Positions 27,646-48,406 of a stretch of 64,000 nt of DNA are shown one piece after another. Position numbers and translations under genes: made by a program. The first letter of the stretch is position 1, and every line of letters begins with the position of its first letter. The stretch is taken from contig JBIKLA010000018.1 of the NCBI GenBank assembly GCA_044360075.1, positions 2,053 through 66,052 of the forward strand, in the 5' to 3' direction. This DNA comes from Bdellovibrionota bacterium (lineage in GTDB: Bacteria; Bdellovibrionota_C; UBA2361; OMII01). Under the pieces are notes generated by a model. The model did no database searches, had not been told where the DNA came from, and worked only from the letters and a program-made list of their open reading frames with translations.

Positions 27646-29481
27646 TTAGCTGCCGAGGCGCAGCAGGATCTGCTTGGCGACCATTGAGAAGAGGGCGCCG
27701 AGCTGTTCTTTCCTCTCTGTTCCGAAATACTCACCCTGGTCAGTCGAGTTAACGTTGGGGCCGATGCCTGGGACGTATCCGACCGACTGAGTGCAGGAGT
27801 AGCAGTCGGATGAGACGTTTGTTGCGCAACTGGAACTACAGCGACAGACTGCCGAGTTTAGGCTCAAGCTGGTGTTGCCGCTTCGGCTGAAGTCGTAGTT
27901 GGGAGTGAGGGTGCCGCTTGTTGTGCTGACAGCATCGGGGTCCATTGCTATGCGGTGGAGAAACCGGTCCTTCCTGACCACTGGATTGTCGATGTTCTCA
28001 AACGGGTCTTCGCAGGCAGAGGCGGTTGAGTTAGAGCCGAGGCCAACTGTGAAAACGGTAGCCTTAAATTCTGAGCGAATGTAGTCCGAGGCCTCGATCG
28101 CGCAGTAGTATGCTAGCTTGGCGTAATTTAAGTTTGCCGGCACATCGCCGTTTGAGTCTATGGGTACGCCCCGGACGCTAGCCGCGTTGTTCGTTCCCGG
28201 AATCGTAAAATCGAGGGAGGTTAGGCAGCCTCGGGGGGTGGGGATAGGCGTGCTAGTCGCACTGGCATTAAGAGCGTGAGGGAACTGGGTCTGGTTGGAG
28301 AGCACCGGGCCGCAAAGATCGGATACTTCGGGTGCGGTGGCCTTGTCCTTTGGGGAGATGCGGTCGAGGCTAATCACGTGATTAAAAAGGGATGCTGTCT
28401 TGACGAGCGGTGAGGGGCCCCGATACATCGTCCCATTGGCATTCCTCCACTCCAGCGTGTACTGGTAGTCCGTCGCCGGAGCCCGGCTGGAAAAGGTGCC
28501 GCGGAATGCGTTGGGGGCTCCGTCGGTAAAGAGCACAACGATCTTCTTTACCCGATTGTACTGGGCTCCCGCTGCGCCTGAGGCTGCGTTCTTAAAGGAA
28601 TTGAGCTCGGTGATGGCGAATTGCAGCCCTTCGCAGATATTAGTGTTGCTGAGGGGGCGCAGGGAATCTGCGGCCGGTCCGGTTGAGGTGACCCGGGTAA
28701 AGTCAGCATAGCGAGTGGTGGATGATCCAAAGGGGGACGGGGCGGCTCCCCCAGCTGTAAACGGAAAGACCGTTCGGGCCCCGAGGTTAAACGTAGTGAC
28801 TGAGATGTAGTCGTGCAGAGGATTGAAGTAGCCCTTGAACACTCCAAGAGCGCTCACAAGCTTCGTAATTAGCTTATCACCGCTGTTGCAGTTCGAGCCA
28901 TCCGTTCTGCAGGCGCACGTCGGGTCTGTGCAGTTCATGGAGCCGGAAACATCGAGTACGAGCGCCACAGCCACGGGGTCAAGCTGGGCGGTCGCGGTGG
29001 ACCTCACGGGGGCCCTGAATGTGTTGTCGGTGAAGTTGCTGCCGATAAGGCGGGCAACGCGGCCGAGCACAAAGGTCGGGACGCGGTATGTCGTTTCGAT
29101 CCTTACCCGGTCCCGCGCGCAGTCGTAGAAGTTGGCGCCCAAGGGAGTAAGGTTTCCGTCGTTGTTCGCCCGCGCGTCTGGATGAAAAGTTCCCAGGTTC
29201 TCGCGTATAACCGCGGTGGCGTGTGCCTGGAGCAGCAGCAGCCCGTTGGCTTTTGGCGCGCAGCCCCCGCCGCTAGTCTCAAAAAACTTGCCCCAGCCCT
29301 CAATAGCCCTGTACTGAATGGTTGAGAACGCCGCGGCCTTCGCAGCCCGCTCGATTCGCGTCTGCCAGGTATAGAGATGGGCGAGGTCGACCGCCATGCC
29401 CCCTAGGGTGAGGAACACGCCGAGGGAGAGCACGAAGAGCACCATCACGTAGCCGCGTTCTTTACAGGATCGTTGTTTCAC
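27646..29481 (-). CDS. tadG: TadG-like pilus protein with vWA domain, cysteine-rich
   Basis: Prepilin-like N-terminus (ERG|YVMVLFVLSL...MAVDLAHLY), MIDAS motif LVLDVSGS and LFTDGAP. Start set at GTG 29481. Confidence 0.8.
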   Translation of the reverse strand: MKQRSCKERGYVMVLFVLSLGVFLTLGGMAVDLAHLYTWQTRIERAAKAAAFSTIQYRAIEGWGKFFETSGGGCAPKANGLLLLQAHATAVIRENLGTFHPDARANNDGNLTPLGANFYDCARDRVRIETTYRVPTFVLGRVARLIGSNFTDNTFRAPVRSTATAQLDPVAVALVLDVSGSMNCTDPTCACRTDGSNCNSGDKLITKLVSALGVFKGYFNPLHDYISVTTFNLGARTVFPFTAGGAAPSPFGSSTTRYADFTRVTSTGPAADSLRPLSNTNICEGLQFAITELNSFKNAASGAAGAQYNRVKKIVVLFTDGAPNAFRGTFSSRAPATDYQYTLEWRNANGTMYRGPSPLVKTASLFNHVISLDRISPKDKATAPEVSDLCGPVLSNQTQFPHALNASATSTPIPTPRGCLTSLDFTIPGTNNAASVRGVPIDSNGDVPANLNYAKLAYYCAIEASDYIRSEFKATVFTVGLGSNSTASACEDPFENIDNPVVRKDRFLHRIAMDPDAVSTTSGTLTPNYDFSRSGNTSLSLNSAVCRCSSSCATNVSSDCYSCTQSVGYVPGIGPNVNSTDQGEYFGTERKEQLGALFSMVAKQILLRLGS

Positions 29482-30118
29482 GGGGCAAGTTCTGTTGGTT
29501 GGCTGGTCTAAGGGGAGATCTAAGGGGAGAATTGGCGAAGTTAACATCGAAGCTGTTTCCGACTCCGATTACCCGGTAGTTGATGATGGGGGCATACACA
29601 AAGGTCATCTCGGAAATCAAGACCCGGCCGGTTGTGCACCCCCACGTGCCTGTCACGATGCCGTTGGGGCCAGCGATTCCCCCCGCGCGCGGCTGATATG
29701 CCGAGTTGGGGTTTTGTGAGGTAATTGCCTGCGGGGCCTGGGCGGCACACCCCGCAGTCGGGACGGGGTTGGCATAGTCGAACCGGTACATGGAGATCGT
29801 GACAGAGCCCGGAATGCCTGTGCCGGCGAGGGTGGCTTCTATTGAGGCCTTTACGTTGTCAAGGCATCCCTGGATAAGGGGAGTGGTAACCAGTTGATTG
29901 ACTAAGACCTCCCCGTTTGTGAATTTCACGCTAGTTCTGTCGCATTGACGATACGCCCGCATGGCAGCTTCCTTGCTCAGCACATCCGCAACCTGCCGAA
30001 AGCGGATAAAGCGCGAGAGCTCGACGGTTGCTCCGGCAACAAGCAGCATGATCGGCGCGACCATGATAAACTCAAGGAAGCTCGCGCCACGTTGTTGCCC
30101 CCGGTCGTTCATGCGCAC
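29462..30118 (-). CDS. tadE: TadE/TadF-like pseudopilin
   Basis: QRG|ASFLEFIMVAP: G/XXXXE prepilin-peptidase motif followed by a hydrophobic helix. Confidence 0.85.
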   Translation of the reverse strand: MRMNDRGQQRGASFLEFIMVAPIMLLVAGATVELSRFIRFRQVADVLSKEAAMRAYRQCDRTSVKFTNGEVLVNQLVTTPLIQGCLDNVKASIEATLAGTGIPGSVTISMYRFDYANPVPTAGCAAQAPQAITSQNPNSAYQPRAGGIAGPNGIVTGTWGCTTGRVLISEMTFVYAPIINYRVIGVGNSFDVNFANSPLRSPLRPANQQNLPRETTIL

Positions 30119-36867: not shown

Positions 36868-36894
36868 GAAACAATTTCTGCGGACTCCCGAACA
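36868..36894 (+). promoter_or_regulatory. Sigma-28-like promoter upstream of the sigma factor gene
   Basis: GAAA-N15-CCCGAACA (compare consensus TAAA-N15-GCCGATAA), 33 nt before ATG 36928. The same -10 and spacing recur at 39617-39643. Confidence 0.55.
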
Positions 36895-36927
36895 TCTGAG
36901 TGAGTTTTGGGGAGGAGGGCGCCAAGT

Positions 36928-37737
36928 ATGCCACCGGGAAAGCGGAGCGGAGAACGGGAAGCAGCGGCGCCTGCGCGAGCCAAGAAGCCGGGCGCTTCTG
37001 GACGGGGACGGGCGCGGCGGGCGGCGGAGCGCCGAAGTCCACAGGGCGACCGCGCTCGAAACAGGCTTATCGAGCGCTACCACGGCTATGTGGGCCTTAT
37101 AGTGGCGCGCCTCGTGCGCACGATGCGGTTCCCGGCAGCGCTTCGCGATGAGTTCATGTCAGCCGGGTACCTTGGGCTCGTTGAGGCCGCGAGCCGTTTC
37201 GACCCGGGGCGCGGCCACGACTTCCGCGCCTTCGCCTTCCTCCGCATTCGCGGTGCGGTCATCGACTACATTCGGTCCTCGTGCGAGCTCTCGGGAAACA
37301 CCTACCGTGTGTTCAAGGCGCTTGAGGCGGCGCAGGAGCTGCGCGCCGAAAGCCTTGAGCATCAGCAAACGGGCTCAACGGGCCGCGAGGAGCGGGCCGC
37401 GAAGTCCTTGACGGCGCTTTCAAAGAGCCTCGTTGCCTACCGCCTCACGGCGCTCAAGCACGGCATGGTCACCATAGGCGCGGCCTCACCGGATGATCCT
37501 GAGCGGTGCCTTGAGGAGAAGCAGGGTTCCGAAAAAATCCGCGCGATCGTAGCAACATTGCCCGAGAAGGAACGAACTATCATTGAGCAGTACTACTTCC
37601 ACGACCGCAAGCTGACGGACGTGGCGGCCCAGTACGCAGGGCTCTCCAAATCGTGGGTATCGAGGCTGCATGATCGCGCGCTTGTTTTCCTTAAAGAAAA
37701 GTTCCAGCAAGAAGCGCCTGAGCTCCTCGAGCCATGA
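36928..37737 (+). CDS. fliA: FliA/WhiG-family (sigma-28-like) RNA polymerase sigma factor
   Basis: Region 2 DEFMSAGYLGLVEAASRFDPGRGHDFRAFAFLRIRGAVIDYIR and region 4 LPEKERTIIEQYY...LSKSWVSRLHDRAL. GGAGGAGG RBS precedes ATG 36928. Confidence 0.88.
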   Translation: MPPGKRSGEREAAAPARAKKPGASGRGRARRAAERRSPQGDRARNRLIERYHGYVGLIVARLVRTMRFPAALRDEFMSAGYLGLVEAASRFDPGRGHDFRAFAFLRIRGAVIDYIRSSCELSGNTYRVFKALEAAQELRAESLEHQQTGSTGREERAAKSLTALSKSLVAYRLTALKHGMVTIGAASPDDPERCLEEKQGSEKIRAIVATLPEKERTIIEQYYFHDRKLTDVAAQYAGLSKSWVSRLHDRALVFLKEKFQQEAPELLEP

Positions 37738-38548
37738 GCGCCGCCCGCAGTCCCGTTCGCGATTCGTTGTGGTCCTGATTTTCGTGGCAGCACTTGCGGC
37801 GGGGTGTGATGAGCAGATTGTGCATGACCTCTCCGAAAACGACGCCAACCGGGTTGTGAGCCGCCTCAGTGCGGCCGATCTTGGGGCGCACAAGGTCCAG
37901 CAATCGGATGGCCGCTGGGCTGTTGCTGTGCGCCAGGAAGCCATCGTCCCGGCGCTCTCGTTCCTTGAGAGCAACCGAGTGCTCATTGCGCGGCCATCGG
38001 GGGGTGCCAAGAGCGGCATCGTGCCGAGCCGCGAGGAGCAGTGGTTTCGCTACGAGCGCGCCATGGCACAGACGATTGAAGAGAGCCTCGGGGCGCTCAG
38101 TGGCGTGCTTGAGGCGCGGGTGCACCTCAACTTGCCTGAGACGGATCCCCTCTTTGGAACGAGGAAGGAGGCGGTGGGAAGCGGCTCAGTGCTGCTCCTG
38201 ATCGACTCACGGTACTCCGCCGCAAACGGGGAGGTTGCAGCGCTTGTGGCGGGAGCCGCCGGGATCCCGGTGGCTCAGGTGACGGTGCTCAAGAGTGCCG
38301 CGAGCCCGCCGCCGGTTGCTGCGCGCCCGGCAGAAAAGACATCCGAAGGCGAGGCACTGGAGGCAGCCAGCCAGCAGCCGATCGGCGCCGCCAAGCCTGC
38401 AGGGGGCTCCGGGCTCAACATGCCGGTGACGATCGGACTTGCGGCGGCCGTGGGCGTGGTGGGCGTGGTGCTGCTCTCACGGCTTAGGCAGCCGAGACGA
38501 CAGCCGTTTGCGTTCCGGAGGCTGGACCGTCACGACAACGATGAATAA
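37670..38548 (+). CDS. sctJ: Type III secretion inner-membrane ring lipoprotein SctJ (YscJ/PrgK family)
   Basis: Lipobox LAAGC, LSENDANRVVSRL, and IVPSREEQ...LSGVLEARVHLNLP, with a single C-terminal TM. Too short for flagellar FliF. Start ambiguous (see findings). Confidence 0.85.
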   Translation: MIARLFSLKKSSSKKRLSSSSHERRPQSRSRFVVVLIFVAALAAGCDEQIVHDLSENDANRVVSRLSAADLGAHKVQQSDGRWAVAVRQEAIVPALSFLESNRVLIARPSGGAKSGIVPSREEQWFRYERAMAQTIEESLGALSGVLEARVHLNLPETDPLFGTRKEAVGSGSVLLLIDSRYSAANGEVAALVAGAAGIPVAQVTVLKSAASPPPVAARPAEKTSEGEALEAASQQPIGAAKPAGGSGLNMPVTIGLAAAVGVVGVVLLSRLRQPRRQPFAFRRLDRHDNDE

Positions 38549-38557
38549 GGGGAAGGC

Positions 38558-38806
38558 ATGGCGAGTTCTCGCGGAGTGACAGGGGAGGGGGCGGCTGATG
38601 CTGCACAGCACGCTGCCGAGGTGATCTCTCCGATCAGCATGGCGTGCTTCATGGAAGGCATCCCGCTCGTTTCGGTTCCGATGACAGGTGAAGAGGGCAC
38701 GAGAGTCGCTGAGGGGCTTGCGACGCTCCAGCGAAAGCCGGCGGTCGAGGCGTATCTCTTCTGCCTGCAGCAGCTCCTCTTGGCGCACGGTGACGGGGCA
38801 TGCTGA
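38558..38806 (+). CDS. Small hypothetical protein in the T3SS operon (SctK position)
   Basis: Good RBS (AAGGGGAAGG); stop overlaps the next start. Confidence 0.65.
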   Translation: MASSRGVTGEGAADAAQHAAEVISPISMACFMEGIPLVSVPMTGEEGTRVAEGLATLQRKPAVEAYLFCLQQLLLAHGDGAC

Positions 38807-39609
38807 CGGTCCTTAACCGTGAGGAGCTGCTCCGCGATGCGGCACTGCGGCCGATGATTGAGCGCACGGTGCGTGCGCTCGCTCGGGAGCAGCGTGCGGA
38901 AATTATCTGCCGGCCGACGGTGGGCGGGTTCTCCGCGCCGTGGATCGTGCTCCTGGATGGGGCGGGCATCGGGATGGGGCTGTGGACTGACGAGCTGCTG
39001 CCGTGCGCCACGGAGCTGCGGCGTGCCATCGTTCGGGTACGGTGCGTGGCCGCCATCGTGAATGCGTTTGGGGGCGCCAGCGCTTTCCCTCTAGCGCTGT
39101 CGTCGATGCGCGAGCCCCCGGCGGAATGGCCGCGCTACAGCATCACAATCGGGGCTGATGTGTGTGTCGTCGCGTGCTCCCCCGGACTGCCGCAGACCGG
39201 GTTGTGGGAGACCCCGACGGAGTTGGCAATCCCCCGCGTGCGCGTGCCGTTGTGGTGCGAGCTTCCGCTGCTGAGCGCAACGGAGCTCTTGCTAGAGCGG
39301 GTCCCCGTGGGGATTGGGGGCAGTAACATTCAGGGATGGCTACGGTGTGCTGATGGAGGGGCAATGACGATTGAGATAGTTGAGAAGCTGCAGGAACCTG
39401 GCCCCGCGCATGCGCAGGTGCGGGTTGAGCTGGGGGTTATAGAGCTTACGCTTGAGGAGCTGCTTTCACTTCGGCCGGGAAGCGTGCTTGAGATCGGTGC
39501 GGCGCTGCCCCTGGCCTGTACCCTCTCTGTGGGGGCGACCGAGATTGTGCGCGCGATGCTTGAGCCGTCTGAGGGTGGATTTCTGCTGAGGATCGCCCCA
39601 AAAAGCTGA
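38800..39609 (+). CDS. sctQ: SctQ/FliM-FliN-like sorting-platform protein with C-terminal SpoA domain
   Basis: C-terminal VRVELGVIELTLEELLSLRPGSVLEI...GFLLRI matches the SpoA pattern; T3SS context. Confidence 0.7.
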   Translation: MLTVLNREELLRDAALRPMIERTVRALAREQRAEIICRPTVGGFSAPWIVLLDGAGIGMGLWTDELLPCATELRRAIVRVRCVAAIVNAFGGASAFPLALSSMREPPAEWPRYSITIGADVCVVACSPGLPQTGLWETPTELAIPRVRVPLWCELPLLSATELLLERVPVGIGGSNIQGWLRCADGGAMTIEIVEKLQEPGPAHAQVRVELGVIELTLEELLSLRPGSVLEIGAALPLACTLSVGATEIVRAMLEPSEGGFLLRIAPKS

Positions 39610-39616
39610 CGTTCCC

Positions 39617-39643
39617 GCAACTTTTCGCCCTGGCCCCCGAACA
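39617..39643 (+). promoter_or_regulatory. Sigma-28-like internal promoter upstream of the needle/rod-like gene
   Basis: GCAA-N15-CCCGAACA, 37 nt before ATG 39681. Confidence 0.55.
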
Positions 39644-39680
39644 CCCTTCTTGCAACCACTCGAAGAGGAGGGCTTACCGT

Positions 39681-40001
39681 ATGTTCACCAGCTTAATTCA
39701 GGCAACACCGCAGGGCTCATGGGGGCTTCAGCCCGAGGGCTCCTCGATGCTCCGCTACGCGCCAGAGCCACACAGCACGCTCGGTAAGTGGGTTCAGGCA
39801 GCGACGAGCACCGTCGCAAACATGGCGACAACCGCCTTGACCGGCAATCCGATGCTCGACTCGGCGGCTGACTTCCAGCAGCTAATCCAGACGCAGATCC
39901 AGGTCCAGCGGGACATGCAGATATACACCATGGTCTCGAACCTTGAGCGCTCCAAGCACGAGACGGAGATGGCCCCGGTCCGAAACATGCGTGTTGGCTA
40001 G
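39681..40001 (+). CDS. SctF/SctI-like needle or inner-rod protein (106 aa)
   Basis: C-terminal amphipathic helix FQQLIQTQIQVQRDMQIYTMVSNLERSKHETEMAPVRNMR resembles the ends of T3SS needle/rod subunits. S/P/T-rich N-terminus, no signal peptide, strong RBS. Confidence 0.55.
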   Translation: MFTSLIQATPQGSWGLQPEGSSMLRYAPEPHSTLGKWVQAATSTVANMATTALTGNPMLDSAADFQQLIQTQIQVQRDMQIYTMVSNLERSKHETEMAPVRNMRVG

Positions 40002-40052
40002 TGAGATGACCGCCCTCCCGCGAGGGAGGGCGCCACCATCCGGAGGCACGAA

Positions 40053-41939
40053 GTGAAGGCAGCATCGATCAGCTCACGGGACATTGCAGTGCCTCTTGGC
40101 CTGCTCCTCGTCGTCGGGTGTATCTTAATTCCGCTGCCTCCGGGTATCCTCGATATCCTGCTCTGCTCAAACCTGCTTTTTGCGCTGCTACTTGTAATCG
40201 GATCGCTGCACATTCGCGATCCGCTGCGGATCGCAACGCTCCCCTCGCTTCTCCTCATGGCGACCCTCTCTAGGCTCTCGCTGAACATCGCCACGACGCG
40301 GGCGGTGCTGGGCTCGGGGCACGCGGGCAAGGCGGTGGAGGCCTTCGGCTCTGTCGTGATTCAGGGCAGCGCTGTTGTTGGATTTGTCCTCTTTGTGCTT
40401 ATCACCCTGATTCAGTTTATCGTTGTGGCAAAGGGCGCGGAGCGTGTGGCTGAGGTTGCGGCGCGCTTTACCTTGGACGCCATGCCCGGCAAGCAGATGG
40501 CTATCGACGCGGAGCTGCGCAGCGGGCTGCTCGACCCGGAACAGGCGCGGCGCAAGCGCATGGAGGTCCAGACGGAATCGCGCTTCTACGGCGCGCTCGA
40601 CGGTGCCATGAAGTTCGTCAAAGGGGATGCTATAGCGGGGATCGTCATAACAGCCGTAAATATCTGCGGCGGCCTGCTCATAGGAATTCTCGTCCATCAG
40701 CTCGACCTTGAGGTAGCACTTAGGCGCTACACAATTCTCACCATCGGCGACGGGCTCTTGTCGCAGATTCCGTCACTGCTAAACTCGGTTGCGGCCGGGC
40801 TGGTAGTCACGCGCGTTCAGGTCGATGAGTCATCCACGCTCTCGTCGGACCTCCTCATGCAGCTTGGGCAATTCAGGGCCGCGCGCACGTTCGTTGCCGC
40901 GGCCTCCTTCGTGCTCGGGTGCCTGCCGGGCATGCCGCATGTGGCGCTGCTGGCTGTGAGCTCCGCCATAGCGCTTCCGCTCATCATGGTGCGGCGGGGC
41001 GGTCCCAAAGATGAGCCGCCGCAGCCCAAGCTCTTTGAGCCCAGGCTCGCGCACTCCGTGCAGCTGGAAGTTTCCAAGGCGCTGCTTCCCTGCATGCCGG
41101 CTCTCGACAAAGTGAACGAGGCCCTTGAGGCGATTCGGGAGGATTTTTTCTCGCGCTGGGGGGTCGTGCTCCAGCGCCCTGGATTGTCGCTGTGGGATGA
41201 GCCGCAGGGGGCCTTTCGCATCTTGGTGCGCGGCATGGAGGTTTCGCGCTGCGAGCGCGATCCTGACGCAGCGACGTGGGATCTTCTTCTTCGGGAGGTG
41301 CGGGAGGTTGTCGATGGGCACAAAGCTGAGCTGATCGATGATGGGGCGACGCGACGGGCGCTTGATTACGTTGAGAAGCAGGTTCCTGACCTCGTGACGG
41401 GCACGGTGCCATCGCTGCTGTCACTCACGCAGATGACATCGCTGCTTCGCAGCCTCCTGCGAGAAGATCTCACGACGCGACACCTGGACATCATTCTTCA
41501 AACGATCGCCGAGAGTGGTGGGCGGTTTTCGGAGCGGGCGCTCTTGGCCGAGGTGCGCGTGGCGCTGGCACCGGTGGTCAGCCAGGCTGTGGGTCGTGGC
41601 CGCCGCATTCAGGCTGTGGCGCTTGATCCGCTGCTTGACCTTGCGCTCTCAAAGGCCGAAGAGAGCGCCTCCCTTTTGGCTGGGGACCTCCTTGATCTGG
41701 TCAGCGAAGAGGCAGGCGGGGCGGCGGCGAAGGGCCTTCCGATCCTCACGTCAAAGCGGGCACGGGCTTACGTAAGGGATATCGTCCGGGTGCGCTGGCC
41801 GCACGCAGTCATCATCGCGCATGAGGAAGTAGCCCCGCGCTATGAGCTTGAGATCGTTGGAAAGATAGAGGTGGCGCAGGAGCATCAGCGCGAGCAGCTG
41901 CTAAGCGCCACCCTGGGGATGAGGGAGGCGCGGGCATGA
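40053..41939 (+). CDS. sctV: Type III secretion export gate protein SctV (FlhA/LcrD, FHIPEP family)
   Basis: KGAERVAEVAARFTLDAMPGKQMAIDAEL, DGAMKFVKGDAIAG and LTIGDGLLSQIP motifs, about 8 TM helices. MKFVKGD is the injectisome-type variant (FlhA is usually SKFVRGD). Confidence 0.95.
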   Translation: MKAASISSRDIAVPLGLLLVVGCILIPLPPGILDILLCSNLLFALLLVIGSLHIRDPLRIATLPSLLLMATLSRLSLNIATTRAVLGSGHAGKAVEAFGSVVIQGSAVVGFVLFVLITLIQFIVVAKGAERVAEVAARFTLDAMPGKQMAIDAELRSGLLDPEQARRKRMEVQTESRFYGALDGAMKFVKGDAIAGIVITAVNICGGLLIGILVHQLDLEVALRRYTILTIGDGLLSQIPSLLNSVAAGLVVTRVQVDESSTLSSDLLMQLGQFRAARTFVAAASFVLGCLPGMPHVALLAVSSAIALPLIMVRRGGPKDEPPQPKLFEPRLAHSVQLEVSKALLPCMPALDKVNEALEAIREDFFSRWGVVLQRPGLSLWDEPQGAFRILVRGMEVSRCERDPDAATWDLLLREVREVVDGHKAELIDDGATRRALDYVEKQVPDLVTGTVPSLLSLTQMTSLLRSLLREDLTTRHLDIILQTIAESGGRFSERALLAEVRVALAPVVSQAVGRGRRIQAVALDPLLDLALSKAEESASLLAGDLLDLVSEEAGGAAAKGLPILTSKRARAYVRDIVRVRWPHAVIIAHEEVAPRYELEIVGKIEVAQEHQREQLLSATLGMREARA

Positions 41940-42562
41940 AACTGTGGAGAAATGCCGCACGCGGCGCAACTTTGGGGGGCGCAACTTCGATTACCCGGTA
42001 TATGCTGTTGGCGGCCACAGCGCTTAGCGGCTGCTGGCTTCCGGTGGGCGTGCCGGCTGAACGGGTTGAGCGGGCGCAGCAGCTCGTCGATGAGGGCACC
42101 GAGGCGCTGCGGGAGCGGCGGTTTAGCGCCGCGCAGGTCAAGTTTTCGCTGGCTTATGACCTCGCGCCACTTACTGCGGCGCTCGATGGCCAGGGCTGTG
42201 TGGCGCTTCTGCGCGGTGAGTACCAGCGGGCAGAGGAGCTGTTTAAGGAGGCGCTTGCGAGTGACGCAAGCTATGACCGCGCCTTGGCCAATCTCGCGCT
42301 CCTCTACGATGTTACGGGCCGGAGCAGTGAGGCGAGGGAGCTATACGATCGCTTCCTTGAGCAGGAACCTGAGGAGGCCACTGTGCGGAATAACAGGGCG
42401 GCGCTGGCATACGACCTCAGCGCCGACGGGGAGTGGGTCGGGGATGAATTATCGAAGGCGTCGCTCCTTGTGGATGATGGCGTTGTTATAGGAAACCTTA
42501 AGCTGGTAGGACGAATTCCGGAGGAACGACATGACAAAGAAAGCGACCAAGGAACGAAGTGA
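41936..42562 (+). CDS. TPR lipoprotein (TadD/pilotin-like)
   Basis: Lipobox LSGC; three to four TPR-like repeats (ALDGQGCVAL, ALANLALLY, VRNNRAAL); ATGA coupling to sctV. Confidence 0.7.
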   Translation: MKLWRNAARGATLGGATSITRYMLLAATALSGCWLPVGVPAERVERAQQLVDEGTEALRERRFSAAQVKFSLAYDLAPLTAALDGQGCVALLRGEYQRAEELFKEALASDASYDRALANLALLYDVTGRSSEARELYDRFLEQEPEEATVRNNRAALAYDLSADGEWVGDELSKASLLVDDGVVIGNLKLVGRIPEERHDKESDQGTK

Positions 42563-42848
42563 GAATCTTCCCCACAGGAGTGCCCGGCAGGTGCCCGGTC
42601 CGGCGCAGGAGGTTGCGCCTCCGGTGTCGATTGAGGACCTTAACCTAAACGCCACGATCCTCGCCGCGCAGAAACAGGTTTTTAAATCTGAGCAGGAGGC
42701 GCTCGATTTTTTCTACGCAAGGCTGCTCCAGGCGGCCGGGGGTAGCGCTGCTGAGCAGGCACAGATGATGGAATTCCTTGAGCTTTTGATTGAAACGGAC
42801 CCCCTACTCAAGGAGGAGTTGCTGTCTGGGGTAACGATCAGAAAGTGA
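42531..42848 (+). CDS. Small acidic helical hypothetical protein
   Basis: GGAGG RBS; overlaps the upstream gene by 32 nt. Confidence 0.7.
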   Translation: MTKKATKERSENLPHRSARQVPGPAQEVAPPVSIEDLNLNATILAAQKQVFKSEQEALDFFYARLLQAAGGSAAEQAQMMEFLELLIETDPLLKEELLSGVTIRK

Positions 42849-42881
42849 GTCGATCCAGAGCGCTGCATAATCCTAAGGTGC

Positions 42882-43601
42882 ATGCAGCAGGCACCGGGCC
42901 AGGAAGCCCAACGAAAAATCCTCATAGCTGACGATGACGCCGACTCGCGCGTAATCGTGGCCAGCGTTATCTCGCTCATGGGGTACACGCCCGTTGTGGT
43001 CGCCAATGGGCAAGAGGCTCTTGAGCAGAGCAAGCAGGAGGTGCCGCACCTCGCCATTCTTGACTACATGATGCCTGACCTCACCGGGATCGAGGTGTGT
43101 CACCGCATTAAGCACAACGCCGCTGGAGAGTTTGTGCCGGTGCTCATGCTAACCGCGCGCGACACGGTGCGCGACAAGGTGGCGGCGTTTGAGGAGGGGG
43201 TGGATGACTACCTCACCAAGCCGTTCAACTACCAGGAGTTTCAGGCACGCGTGAAGGCGCTGCTTCGGGTGCGCGACCTTACCTTCGACCTGCGCGACAC
43301 CAACGAAGAGCTCAAGAAGATGCAGCAGAAGATCGTCGAGCAGGAGCGCCAGCTGGCAGTGGGCCAGCTAGCCGGCACGGCGGCGCACCAGCTGGGCCAG
43401 CCGCTTTCGGCCATCCTGCTCAACTGCTACCTCATCGAGCAGCTTCCCAAGAACGACCCGAAATTCATCGGCGCGCTGGCCGCCATCAAGAGCGACACCA
43501 AGCGCATGAGCGACCTCATTAACCAGCTTCGGTCCGTAAAGGCATCTGATCGCGAAGGCTACTTCGGCGGCACTGAGATACTCAAGCTTAAGGACGACTA
43601 G
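42882..43601 (+). CDS. Response regulator receiver fused to a HisKA/DHp domain, lacking the ATPase domain
   Basis: REC motifs IADDD, ILDYMMP and YLTKPF, then a coiled coil and H-box AAHQLGQPL. The ORF ends about 70 aa after the His with no N/G boxes. Confidence 0.85.
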   Translation: MQQAPGQEAQRKILIADDDADSRVIVASVISLMGYTPVVVANGQEALEQSKQEVPHLAILDYMMPDLTGIEVCHRIKHNAAGEFVPVLMLTARDTVRDKVAAFEEGVDDYLTKPFNYQEFQARVKALLRVRDLTFDLRDTNEELKKMQQKIVEQERQLAVGQLAGTAAHQLGQPLSAILLNCYLIEQLPKNDPKFIGALAAIKSDTKRMSDLINQLRSVKASDREGYFGGTEILKLKDD

Positions 43602-47603: not shown

Positions 47604-47725
47604 ATTCGGACTCCCCACCGATGGGTATGGCGCTCCGATTATGAGGTGTGACATACCTAGCGCTGTCGGTTTGCGTCCTTATAGGAACGCAGCTGTGTGA
47701 AACGTCATTAAAAAAGGAACCAGTC

Positions 47726-48406
47726 ATGCCATCGATACGTGCAGGCCAAAAGGCGCCAAACTTTAAGCTTAACGACAAGGACGGTGGGGTTCACCAGCTC
47801 CAATCACCAGGGGCCGACTTCACCGTTCTCTACTTCTATCCCAAGGACAGCACCCCAGGTTGCACCCTAGAGGCCCAGGAGTTTACGGCAACCCTGAAGG
47901 ATTTTAAGGCCAGGGGAGCACGGGTGATCGGGATTTCCGGCGGCGATGGCTCGTCGAAGGCCAAGTTCTGCTCAAAGTACAAGCTCAACGTACCGCTGGT
48001 GTCGGACACTGACTTTAAGGTGGCAAAATCCTTCGGAGCGTACGGGGACAAGAAGTTCATGGGCCGCAGCTTCAAGGGTATCTTTCGCAAGACGTTCATT
48101 CTCGACAGCAAGGGAACGGTCGTAAAGGTGTTTGAGTCGGTTAAGCCCGAAGGGCACGCCACCGAGGTTCTGAAGGCCATCGACGCCATGACGCGCACCG
48201 GAGGCACGACAAAGAAGGCTGTGGCCAAGAAGGCTGCAACGAAGAAGACTCCTGTGAAGAAGGCCCCTGTGAAGAAGGCGCCTGTGAAGAAGGCAACGGT
48301 GAAGAAGGCAACTGCCAAGCGCACGCCGGCACAAACGAAGGCCGCACCGAGCAGTCGCAAAGCCACTGCTCGAGCCGCAAAGACGAGCTCACGCAAGAAG
48401 AAGTAG
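47726..48406 (+). CDS. bcp: Bcp/PrxQ peroxiredoxin with a C-terminal histone-H1-like K/A/P-rich tail
   Basis: LYFYPKDSTPGCTLEA (peroxidatic Cys), FCSKY and RKTFILD, followed by about 65 aa of KKAP/KKAT repeats. AAGGA RBS precedes ATG 47726. Confidence 0.93.
   Translation: MPSIRAGQKAPNFKLNDKDGGVHQLQSPGADFTVLYFYPKDSTPGCTLEAQEFTATLKDFKARGARVIGISGGDGSSKAKFCSKYKLNVPLVSDTDFKVAKSFGAYGDKKFMGRSFKGIFRKTFILDSKGTVVKVFESVKPEGHATEVLKAIDAMTRTGGTTKKAVAKKAATKKTPVKKAPVKKAPVKKATVKKATAKRTPAQTKAAPSSRKATARAAKTSSRKKK
48251..48310. repeat. 15-bp tandem repeat, 4 copies (PVKKA / TVKKA)
   Basis: CCTGTGAAGAAGGCN three times, then ACGGTGAAGAAGGCA. Confidence 0.9.

Follow-up and report, generated by a model that had tools for sequence, protein, structure and literature searches.

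Secretin-less type III secretion systems (T3SS) are known from the Myxococcales. These 'Myxo' systems, which also lack SctF, were regarded by Abby and Rocha as descendants of an intermediate form (PMC3459982), and thus the concept of a secretin-less intermediate is not new. In Myxococcus xanthus, the needle-less T3SS* (mxan_2434-2464) and the Kil Tad pilus act jointly to lyse prey (PMC12075869). A literature search did not reveal any such T3SS in the Bdellovibrionota, nor any injectisome headed by a FliA paralogue. Here, a stretch of 64,000 nucleotides (nt) from a Bdellovibrionota bacterium (contig JBIKLA010000018.1) was analysed, the whole of which is called "the window" below. It contains an operon in which a gene for a FliA-like sigma factor is followed by genes for T3SS components. 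An earlier inspection of the DNA letters (the sequence-only reading) had taken this operon for a part of a split T3SS run by a dedicated sigma-28 factor, and possibly for an intermediate between flagellum and injectisome. The analysis led to the conclusion, with a probability of about 0.62, that the operon makes up one third of a non-flagellar T3SS ("System A"), which is functional, vertically inherited, and encoded at three loci.

The operon consists of nine co-directional open reading frames (ORFs) on the + strand (window 36928-43601), in the order sigma factor, sctJ, an 82-aa ORF, sctQ, a 106-aa needle-type gene, sctV, and the genes for a TPR lipoprotein, for a protein of 105 aa, and for a REC-DHp protein (Table 1). 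ORF analysis as well as Pfam and NCBIfam scans bore out this run of genes with T3SS parts behind a sigma gene, which the sequence-only reading had described. Every ORF is intact, and all nine have the codon-position GC of true genes (GC1 ~0.7, GC2 ~0.45, and GC3 ~0.73 in a genome with 60% G+C), while the long antisense ORFs overlapping the operon do not have this pattern. All T3SS components of this system score below the curated NCBIfam equivalog cut-offs. The claim that sctC/D/L/N/R/S/T/U and flagellar structural genes are missing from the window was confirmed by family searches of the whole genome, which is 98.9% complete; these genes had no match inside the window, and a flagellin match was also not found there. 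The run had further been described as coupled via ribosome-binding sites. This does not hold true for the junctions between sctQ and the 106-aa gene (71 nt) and between the 106-aa gene and sctV (51 nt), where a promoter and a hairpin are located. An earlier start of the sigma ORF at position 36868 was not retained, as a promoter-like motif begins there instead; the likeliest start is the ATG at 36928, which is preceded by GGAGGAGG. The single usable start of sctJ is the ATG at 37670, with a 68-nt overlap with the sigma gene. Within the operon, neither a sigma-70-type promoter nor a convincing terminator was found.

The ring protein is of the short SctJ lipoprotein type and not FliF, in agreement with the sequence-only reading. 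It scored 77.7 bits with TIGR02544 and 18.9 bits with FliF, it has the lipobox LAAGC and a C-terminal transmembrane helix, and a true FliF (583-aa frame) is encoded on C35. The SctV protein contains GAMKFVKGD, which includes the motif MKFVKGD that had been taken as injectisome-type. It is nearly equidistant to both sides, with 453 bits for FlhA and 447 bits for HrcV, and 305 bits for FlhA and 299 bits for SsaV in the PDB. For the phylogenetic analysis of the gate, FHIPEP proteins from 80 named genomes were used as references. A pattern scan of genomes for SctV relatives, for which generic FHIPEP patterns were applied, yielded mostly FlhA proteins with 30-40% identity and no close SctV orthologue, and served for tree references only. 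Four groups were each strongly monophyletic, i.e., FlhA (including the C10 copy of the genome), classical SctV together with Myxococcota, a Tad-linked type represented on C44, and the type of the window ("W-type").

The SctV of the window falls outside the FlhA clade with a support of 100. In the LG+G4 tree, the W-type and C44-type were separated from SctV plus Myxo and FlhA (95/89). Under the site-heterogeneous C20 posterior mean site frequency (PMSF) model the support for W-type plus FlhA was 54, and the pairings of the W-type with SctV/Myxo and with the C44-type each had a p-value of 0.59 in the approximately unbiased test, so that the pairings were indistinguishable. Because this model fails to fix the arrangement of the four clades, a sister-group claim for the W-type was dropped, and the near-equal FlhA and SctV scores agree with this undecided placement. 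The SctV of the window is therefore not an FlhA, but the placement among the four clades neither shows nor refutes the idea of an intermediate. The sequence-only reading had named a SctV that groups with FlhA, next to a complete flagellar gene set elsewhere, as an outcome that would contradict it. The full flagellar set is indeed present in the genome, with FliF, FliI, FlhB, FliP, and FlhA on C10 and C35 and at least three flagellin genes elsewhere, but the grouping of SctV with FlhA was not obtained.

The AlphaFold2 (AF2) model of the 269-aa protein, based on 17 orthologues (predicted local distance difference test score 72.6), matched the FliM(SpoA)::FliN tandem with an E-value of 9e-5, and FliM, HrcQb-C, and YscQ-C more weakly; judged by this predicted fold, the protein is a sorting-platform protein of the SctQ/FliMN type. 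The 106-aa ORF itself had no match in Pfam or NCBIfam. The C-terminus of its family is strongly conserved (LLxxQIxxQxxMQxVSMxSNxEKSxHETxMAxIRNxRxG), and a comparison of the family profile with solved structures yielded MxiH, PrgI, and a fragment of the SsaG/EscF type, aligned end-to-end to the last residue, with E-values of 0.04-1.3. The AF2 model has two helices and fits a needle protomer, and the family is related to that of a 114-aa rod protein encoded on C50 (hhalign probability 76%). The protein is thus assigned with moderate confidence as a putative needle/rod subunit of the SctF family. In the class-level relatives L125, L126, L131, L132, L137, and L138 two tandem needle-family genes are located upstream of sctV. 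One encodes the orthologue of the 106-aa protein, and the other a shorter paralogue ending ...SN..R......(I/V)..N(I/M)R.

The hairpin that follows the needle gene has a folding energy of -29 kcal/mol (z = -2.75), and an extended fold reaches toward the ribosome-binding site of sctV. It may act as an mRNA stabiliser or as an attenuator, and may thereby set the expression ratio of needle to gate. Next, the less characteristic genes of the operon were considered. The 82-aa ORF had no family match, and with tblastn a counterpart was found in locus L105 only. Also for the 105-aa protein the Pfam and NCBIfam scans revealed no family match. In the TPR protein the lipobox cysteine is conserved in all 19 aligned orthologues (19/19), by which the protein is predicted to be a genuine lipoprotein. 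The REC-DHp protein is likely the partner of a PAS/GAF histidine kinase, the gene of which lies within a split sctU locus on C50.

The whole-genome family searches revealed three FHIPEP loci, three FliP-type loci, and three YscJ/FliF-type loci, FlhB-type genes at two loci (C10 and C50), and two ATPases of the FliI/SctN type. The core genes that are absent from the window are intact elsewhere, namely sctI/P/R/S/T/U on C50 and sctL/N on C41, and thus the split nature of the T3SS, proposed from the window alone, was substantiated. On C50, the family of the 114-aa protein matched the inner rod protein MxiI with an E-value of 0.0088, and a 332-aa protein has a weak FliK/Flg_hook domain. The export proteins scored higher with Sct than with Fli models (183.9 versus 152 bits for R, 40 versus 20.7 for S, 64.9 versus 52.4 for T, and 90.9 versus 75.6 for U_N), and the 183.9 bits of R, reached on the EscR/YscR subfamily model, exceed the cut-off of that model (179). 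The sctU gene is split exactly at the position of the NPTH autocleavage site (C50:8786-13131, - strand). SctU_N is a membrane domain of 266 aa that ends ...KVIVVRRAP, the 84-aa SctU_C begins where the C-fragment of a cleaved FlhB would, and the gene for a 1064-aa PAS-GAF histidine kinase sits between the two halves. This layout, including the order U_N-kinase-U_C, is kept in 19 relatives (loci L149-L168). On C41, a 213-aa protein that is weakly SctL-like (35.5 bits) is translationally coupled to a downstream FliI/YscN-family ATPase, which passes the cut-off of its FliI/YscN subfamily (437 versus 379.5 bits) and has scores of 449 bits for SctN and 444 bits for FliI. Two ORFs of 95 and 99 aa behind sctN look like non-genes and were not considered as components.

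The genome contains further type III genes. A second non-flagellar cluster on C39 ("System B") encodes two FHA proteins, SctJ, SctQ, SctR, and SctS, but no SctV; two membrane proteins at the positions of sctT and sctU had no family match in the scan, the latter being a candidate for a membrane-only SctU. On C44, a Tad cluster is followed by the third FHIPEP gene, with PP2C and FHA genes upstream and a gene for an 806-aa HEAT-repeat protein downstream; a Tad secretin was not found in the genome. The loci were paired by exclusion, the window (J, Q, F, V) with C50 (I, P, R, S, T, U), and C39 with C44, which would together form a second T3SS that is needle-less.

For comparison, 22 loci were used, two of them on metagenome contigs and 20 from further genera and families and from class-level relatives. 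The order sigma-J-small-Q-needle-V-TPR(-105 aa-REC/DHp) recurs throughout, across genus, order, and class (23 of 23 loci examined). The sigma gene lies immediately 5' of sctJ in 21 of the 22 loci, the exception being L129 with a position ~5 kb further upstream, and R/S/T/U/N genes are absent within ~9 kb in all of them (22/22). More than 110 metagenome clusters of SctV orthologues with 59-74% identity were found. FHIPEP matches are present in 123 of 124 species genomes of the phylum, and most genomes have three, which within the order are the flagellar, the W-type, and the Tad-linked gate. The gene order, including the small ORFs, is kept across ~36 families of the phylum. In one genome (G058) the W-type SctV, a detectable SctT of the C50 type, and a sigma factor of the operon type are all lacking; a FliI/SctN-family match was also not found there at E 1e-40, FliI included, though flagellin is present. 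The flanks of the operon consist of housekeeping genes (hemB, bioB-like, HAD, MprF-like transmembrane domain, RNase D-like exonuclease, peroxiredoxin), and hemB and the other flanking genes are, unlike the operon, conserved within the genus only. The unit is therefore delimited from the sigma to the REC/DHp gene, and its separation from the remaining core genes must be ancient.

Next, the regulation was addressed. The sequence-only reading had called the sigma factor a relative of sigma-28, and this was upheld, because FliA and WhiG are its nearest relatives. In NCBIfam, the FliA/WhiG family scored best, although the 95 bits are below the cut-off of 189.6; the top matches among solved structures are FliA and WhiG, and within the genome, the sigma factor is closest to the canonical FliA, a paralogue encoded beside flhA/flhF. 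The annotation of the Joint Genome Institute also labels the orthologues of the operon sigma FliA. Region 3 is shortened, and the helix of region 4.2 reads SKSWVSRLH, which is kept among the orthologues, while the canonical FliA has TESRASQIRSRA. The N-terminal tail (window 36928-37065) of ~45 residues is extremely basic, rich in R, K, A, and G, and disordered. This extension is missing from the canonical FliA, and its length is variable among the orthologues of the operon sigma.

The textbook sigma-28 promoter is TAAAGTTT-N11-GCCGATAA. In the genome, the motif (G)(A/C)AACTTT(T)-N11-13-CCGA(A/T)(A/C)A, with a spacing as in the sigma-28 consensus, occurs at five sites, i.e., upstream of the sigma gene (a weaker site) and of the needle gene, directly upstream of the C50 operon and of the C41 operon, and where the TPR gene begins. 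The last site is uncertain as a putative promoter, as it lies inside the longest ORF. The fixed pattern AACTTT-N11-13-CCGATAA, with up to two mismatches (<=2) and a required CGA core, had a background of 43 matches in 891 kb (0.048 per kb). It was present within ~120 nt upstream of the needle gene in 10 of 23 loci, compared with ~0.14 expected, and 50-120 nt upstream of the first operon gene in 7 of 20 loci of the C50 type. It was also found upstream of the sigma gene in the loci of several relatives, and at this position better matches than in the window are present in L119, L120, L123, and L105. Some sites of relatives are perfect, e.g., AACTTTTGCCAAGCCGCTCCGATAA in L120. The promoters before all three loci, which recur at the same places in relatives, are in accordance with the sigma-28-type control that had been proposed for the split system, and, judged from the DNA, they are the strongest evidence that the loci would form one regulon under a factor of the sigma-28 family. 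The simplest reading of these sequences is that the operon's own sigma factor would drive the regulon.

Taken together, the following mechanism can be proposed for System A. A sigma-28-family factor, most simply the operon's own, would transcribe the three loci together, as a single regulon. The internal promoter and the hairpin would raise the level of the polymerising subunit over that of the gate, and the PAS/GAF kinase and the REC-DHp protein would add a signal-dependent control. Substrates would be exported over the inner membrane via a conduit of the rod/needle type. Passage of the outer membrane, if there is any, would depend on further partners, and the TPR lipoprotein is a candidate link. 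A role in the contact-dependent attack on other cells is plausible by analogy to the Myxococcus T3SS* and in view of the Tad/Kil-like genes of the genome.

Several observations weigh against this reading. The needle assignment leans on marginal E-values (0.04-1.3), and a Foldseek search with the AF2 model of the 106-aa protein gave no significant match. Tip, translocon, gatekeeper, effectors, and chaperones were not found at the three loci by Pfam and NCBIfam scans, which for such fast-evolving proteins were not complemented by a dedicated search, and we know of no route by which a needle-type filament could pass the outer membrane without a secretin. The sequence does not tell whether the ATPase belongs to System A or to System B. 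Three gates are found next to only two FliI/SctN ATPases in most genomes of the order, and thus one of the non-flagellar systems in the order has no ATPase of its own or shares one; three ATPases occur in many class-level relatives. Among the promoter-like sites, that before the sigma gene is the weakest, with 3 mismatches to AACTTT-N12-CCGATAA. The -35 half of the motif was picked after the sites of this genome had been viewed, and for this reason the fixed pattern was tested on relatives. Lastly, four genomes without flagellin or FlhA (G040-G043) keep a canonical FliA (245-252 bits). The respective genes (G040:C39, G041:C54, G042:C16, and G043:C3; L176-L179) do not lie beside flagellar genes, and their products are 63-74% identical to the FliA of the genome studied here. 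The canonical FliA therefore probably has non-flagellar work in the phylum and could also read the promoters described above.

It is thus conceivable, albeit somewhat unlikely, that a cascade exists in which the canonical FliA reads the promoters of the three loci, including that of the sigma gene, and the operon sigma acts downstream, e.g., on effector genes, or competes with FliA. In favour of this, the canonical FliA is much better conserved at the order level (63-74% identity) than the operon sigma (28-45%), it is retained in G040-G043, where in G040 the needle gene is also still preceded by the motif, and the motif of the relatives is near to the textbook consensus (CCGATAA), while the operon sigma deviates from FliA in region 4.2, with a diverged -35 recognition helix, and in the shortened region 3. 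However, the sigma gene is fixed at the operon head in essentially every locus, and the flagellin promoters of the genome do not have the AACTTT -35 (CAAAGG versus AACTTT). The latter would fit two specificities, with AACTTT being that of the operon sigma, but the comparison is weak and suggestive only, as it is based on three sequences. Of the claim that a dedicated sigma-28 runs the system, the kinship to FliA/WhiG and the conserved promoters remain, but the canonical FliA is an alternative reader. An unlikely alternative at the level of function, a shade less probable than the cascade, is an export or assembly device that is derived from a T3SS, is confined to the envelope, and is neither a contact-dependent injector or weapon nor related to predation. 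Such a device might assemble a rod or filament in the periplasm, or export periplasmic or surface proteins for transfer to the type II secretion system (T2SS), Tad, or the type IV pilus. The genome is secretin-less with respect to T3SS, because its only two secretins are GspD (514 bits) and PilQ (351 bits), both above the cut-off, and their genes lie in a T2SS or type IV pilus context. A YscD-like protein or a protein with FHA and transmembrane domains as a candidate for SctD was not found at the window, C50, or C41; proteins with FHA or YscD cytoplasmic domains were found only at C39. Together with the missing tip, translocon, and gatekeeper this would fit an envelope device, as do the argument that the secretin-less systems of the Myxococcales are unable to deliver effectors alone (PMC3459982), the existence of T3SS-related inner-membrane structures of unknown function (PMC9380563), the coexistence with a flagellum in most genomes, and the housekeeping-like vertical inheritance. 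In contrast, the putative SctF-family subunit and SctI rod and the SctP/FliK-like ruler suggest a length-controlled filament of an extracellular type, and the Tad/Kil-like genes and the second T3SS-like cluster of the genome resemble the predation apparatus of Myxococcus (PMC12075869). By far the least probable explanation, a decaying relic left by an earlier injectisome or by a second flagellum, could account for the scattered core genes, for the failure to find C, D, tip, and translocon, and for the scores below the equivalog cut-offs. However, the ORFs are intact with a coding GC pattern, the order including the small ORFs is conserved in ~36 families, the W-type SctV clade is monophyletic, and the promoters lie at the same positions in relatives. 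The relic explanation was rejected on conservation; absent or pseudogenised core genes, which the sequence-only reading had regarded as a sign of a relic, were not what was found, as the core genes are intact on C50 and C41.

Table 1. Features of the operon and of associated loci. Coordinates refer to the window unless a locus is given.
Feature	Coordinates	Strand	Basis or remark
Sigma-28-like motif AAACAATTTCTGCGGACTCCCGAACA	36869..36894	+	~35 nt upstream of the sigma gene
Sigma factor with FliA/WhiG as best family, 269 aa	36928..37737	+	Pfam Sigma70_r2 and r4; NCBIfam
SctJ inner-membrane ring lipoprotein, 292 aa	37670..38548	+	YscJ_FliF, 47 bits; TIGR02544
Small ORF, 82 aa, role not assigned	38558..38806	+	Slot conserved, sequence poorly conserved
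SctQ-type sorting-platform protein (predicted), tandem SpoA, 269 aa	38800..39609	+	C-terminal FliMN_C/SpoA match
Putative internal sigma-28-type promoter CAACTTTTCGCCCTGGCCCCCGAACA	39618..39643	+	38 nt upstream of the needle gene
Putative SctF-family needle (or rod) subunit, 106 aa	39681..40001	+	C-terminus ...SNLERSKHETEMAPVRNMRVG
GC-rich hairpin between needle gene and sctV	40011..40032	+	9-bp stem, GCGA loop, no U-tract
SctV/FHIPEP export gate, 628 aa	40053..41939	+	FHIPEP, 514 bits; separate deep clade ("W-type")
Predicted periplasmic TPR lipoprotein	41936..42562	+	4-nt overlap with the sctV stop codon
Third sigma-28-like motif AACTTTGGGGGGCGCAACTTCGATTA (promoter function uncertain)	41968..41993	+	5' end of the TPR gene; same position in L105 and L134
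105-aa protein	42531..42848	+	Disordered N-half; conserved C-terminal helix EFLxLLxETDPxLxEEL
REC + DHp (HisKA) protein, no ATPase domain	42882..43601	+	Pfam/NCBIfam
C50 cluster (locus L018)	C50:8786-16177	-	SctI, FliK/SctP-like, SctR, SctS, SctT, SctU_N, kinase, SctU_C
Third FHIPEP gene, after Tad cluster (loci L005, L006)	C44:74618-88976		RcpC, TadZ-like ATPase, CpaF, TadB, TadC

Further genes of the window were also considered. FlgO-like lipoproteins, the genes on the hemB side, and a TadE/TadG cassette were rejected as parts of the system, as their conservation is at the genus level only (for FlgO in a few more genomes). A 633-aa protein with a vWA domain, which had been noted earlier as a TadG-like tip pilin, is encoded ~7 kb upstream of the operon (window 27646-29547, - strand); a search of the 22 related loci yielded zero matches to it. 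In Myxococcus, Tad tip complexes cooperate with the T3SS*. The peroxiredoxin (AhpC/TSA) at window 47648-48406 has a lysine-rich C-terminal tail with a weak match to the chlamydial histone-like HC2 family.

With regard to evolution, the view that the injectisome arose from the flagellum has so far been anchored on one intermediate-like group, the needle-less and secretin-less systems of the Myxococcales. System A adds a second, independent group, which is widely conserved in an uncultured phylum, the genomes of which typically have three type III export gates that are hidden by their automated annotation as FlhA. It combines features not seen together before, i.e., a putative needle-family subunit together with a rod and a ruler but no secretin, sigma-28 promoters with an in-operon FliA paralogue, a SctU that is pre-split at the autocleavage site together with a sensor kinase gene, and a three-locus architecture that is stable across ~36 families. 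It thus offers material for three questions, namely the regulatory rewiring of T3SS, gene fission in place of SctU cleavage, and a needle-type machine without an outer-membrane ring. A bolder and rather improbable interpretation is that System A represents a fourth deep type III lineage beside the flagellum, the classical injectisomes (with Myxo), and the Tad-linked System B, and is the living descendant of a stage between flagellum and injectisome. It would then have kept an ancestral flagellar logic, in which a sigma-28-family factor transcribes a ruler-controlled, polymerising rod/needle subunit, and perhaps also a secreted checkpoint protein, encoded by one of the small conserved ORFs. If this were true, parts of the SctJ, SctF, and SctI types would already have been there, but no secretin, one step nearer to the needle than in the forms of the Myxococcales.

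Four known systems can be compared with System A. In Chlamydia, the core genes of the non-flagellar T3SS are also scattered over several loci (PMC3459982), and a sigma-28 has been kept without a flagellum, for which a T3SS-secreted anti-sigma factor has been hypothesised (PMC10597470). However, Chlamydia possesses secretin, needle, translocon, and SctD, and its SctV groups with the classical SctV and not with the W-type. The chlamydial sigma-28 regulon comprises hctB and tsp only and not the apparatus (PMC10597470), and the sigma gene does not belong to a T3SS operon. With the flagellar hierarchy of FliA and FlgM, System A shares a FliA-like sigma factor, promoters like TAAAGTTT-N11-GCCGATAA before the gene of a polymerising subunit, a FliK-like ruler, and an FlhB-type switch. 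In contrast to it, no FlgM-like protein was recognised (the 82-aa and the 105-aa proteins have no family match), and the promoters of System A are located also before genes for the basal body and the export gate, and not before late genes alone. Rod, hook, filament, and Mot genes are absent from the locus, and the ring is formed by SctJ and not by FliF.

For SctJ, Q, F, I, P, R, S, T, U, V, L, and N of the classical injectisomes (Ysc, Inv-Mxi-Spa, and Hrp), homologues are all present in the genome, those of F and I being putative, and the R, S, T, and U proteins score higher with Sct than with Fli models. Unlike in these injectisomes, SctC, SctD, SctK, SctO, gatekeeper, tip, and translocon were not recognised in System A, the order J-x-Q-F-V is non-canonical, and the control is not exerted by regulators of the AraC, HrpL, or extracytoplasmic function type. 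The similarity to the systems of the Myxococcales is more extensive. Secretin, translocon, and tip were not found in either, and both have the export apparatus, SctJ, SctI (putative in System A), the ATPase, and the sorting platform; both have been inherited vertically for a long time, and both were formerly mistaken for relics (PMC3459982, PMC12075869). SctD is missing in System A as in the "short" Myxo locus, and Tad/Kil-like genes are present in the same genome. Nevertheless, System A has a putative subunit of the SctF family (two in relatives) and a FliK/SctP-like ruler, while Myxo has no SctF, and it is encoded at three loci and not in one cluster. It also differs from Myxo in its in-operon FliA-family sigma factor, its sigma-28-type promoters, and its split SctU with the embedded kinase gene, it occurs in flagellated bacteria, and its SctV clade is separate from that of the Myxococcota and the classical SctV. 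Judged from its predicted components, System A would thus work like the Myxo type, and it is, by the sequence of its gate, not a member of the Myxo clade.

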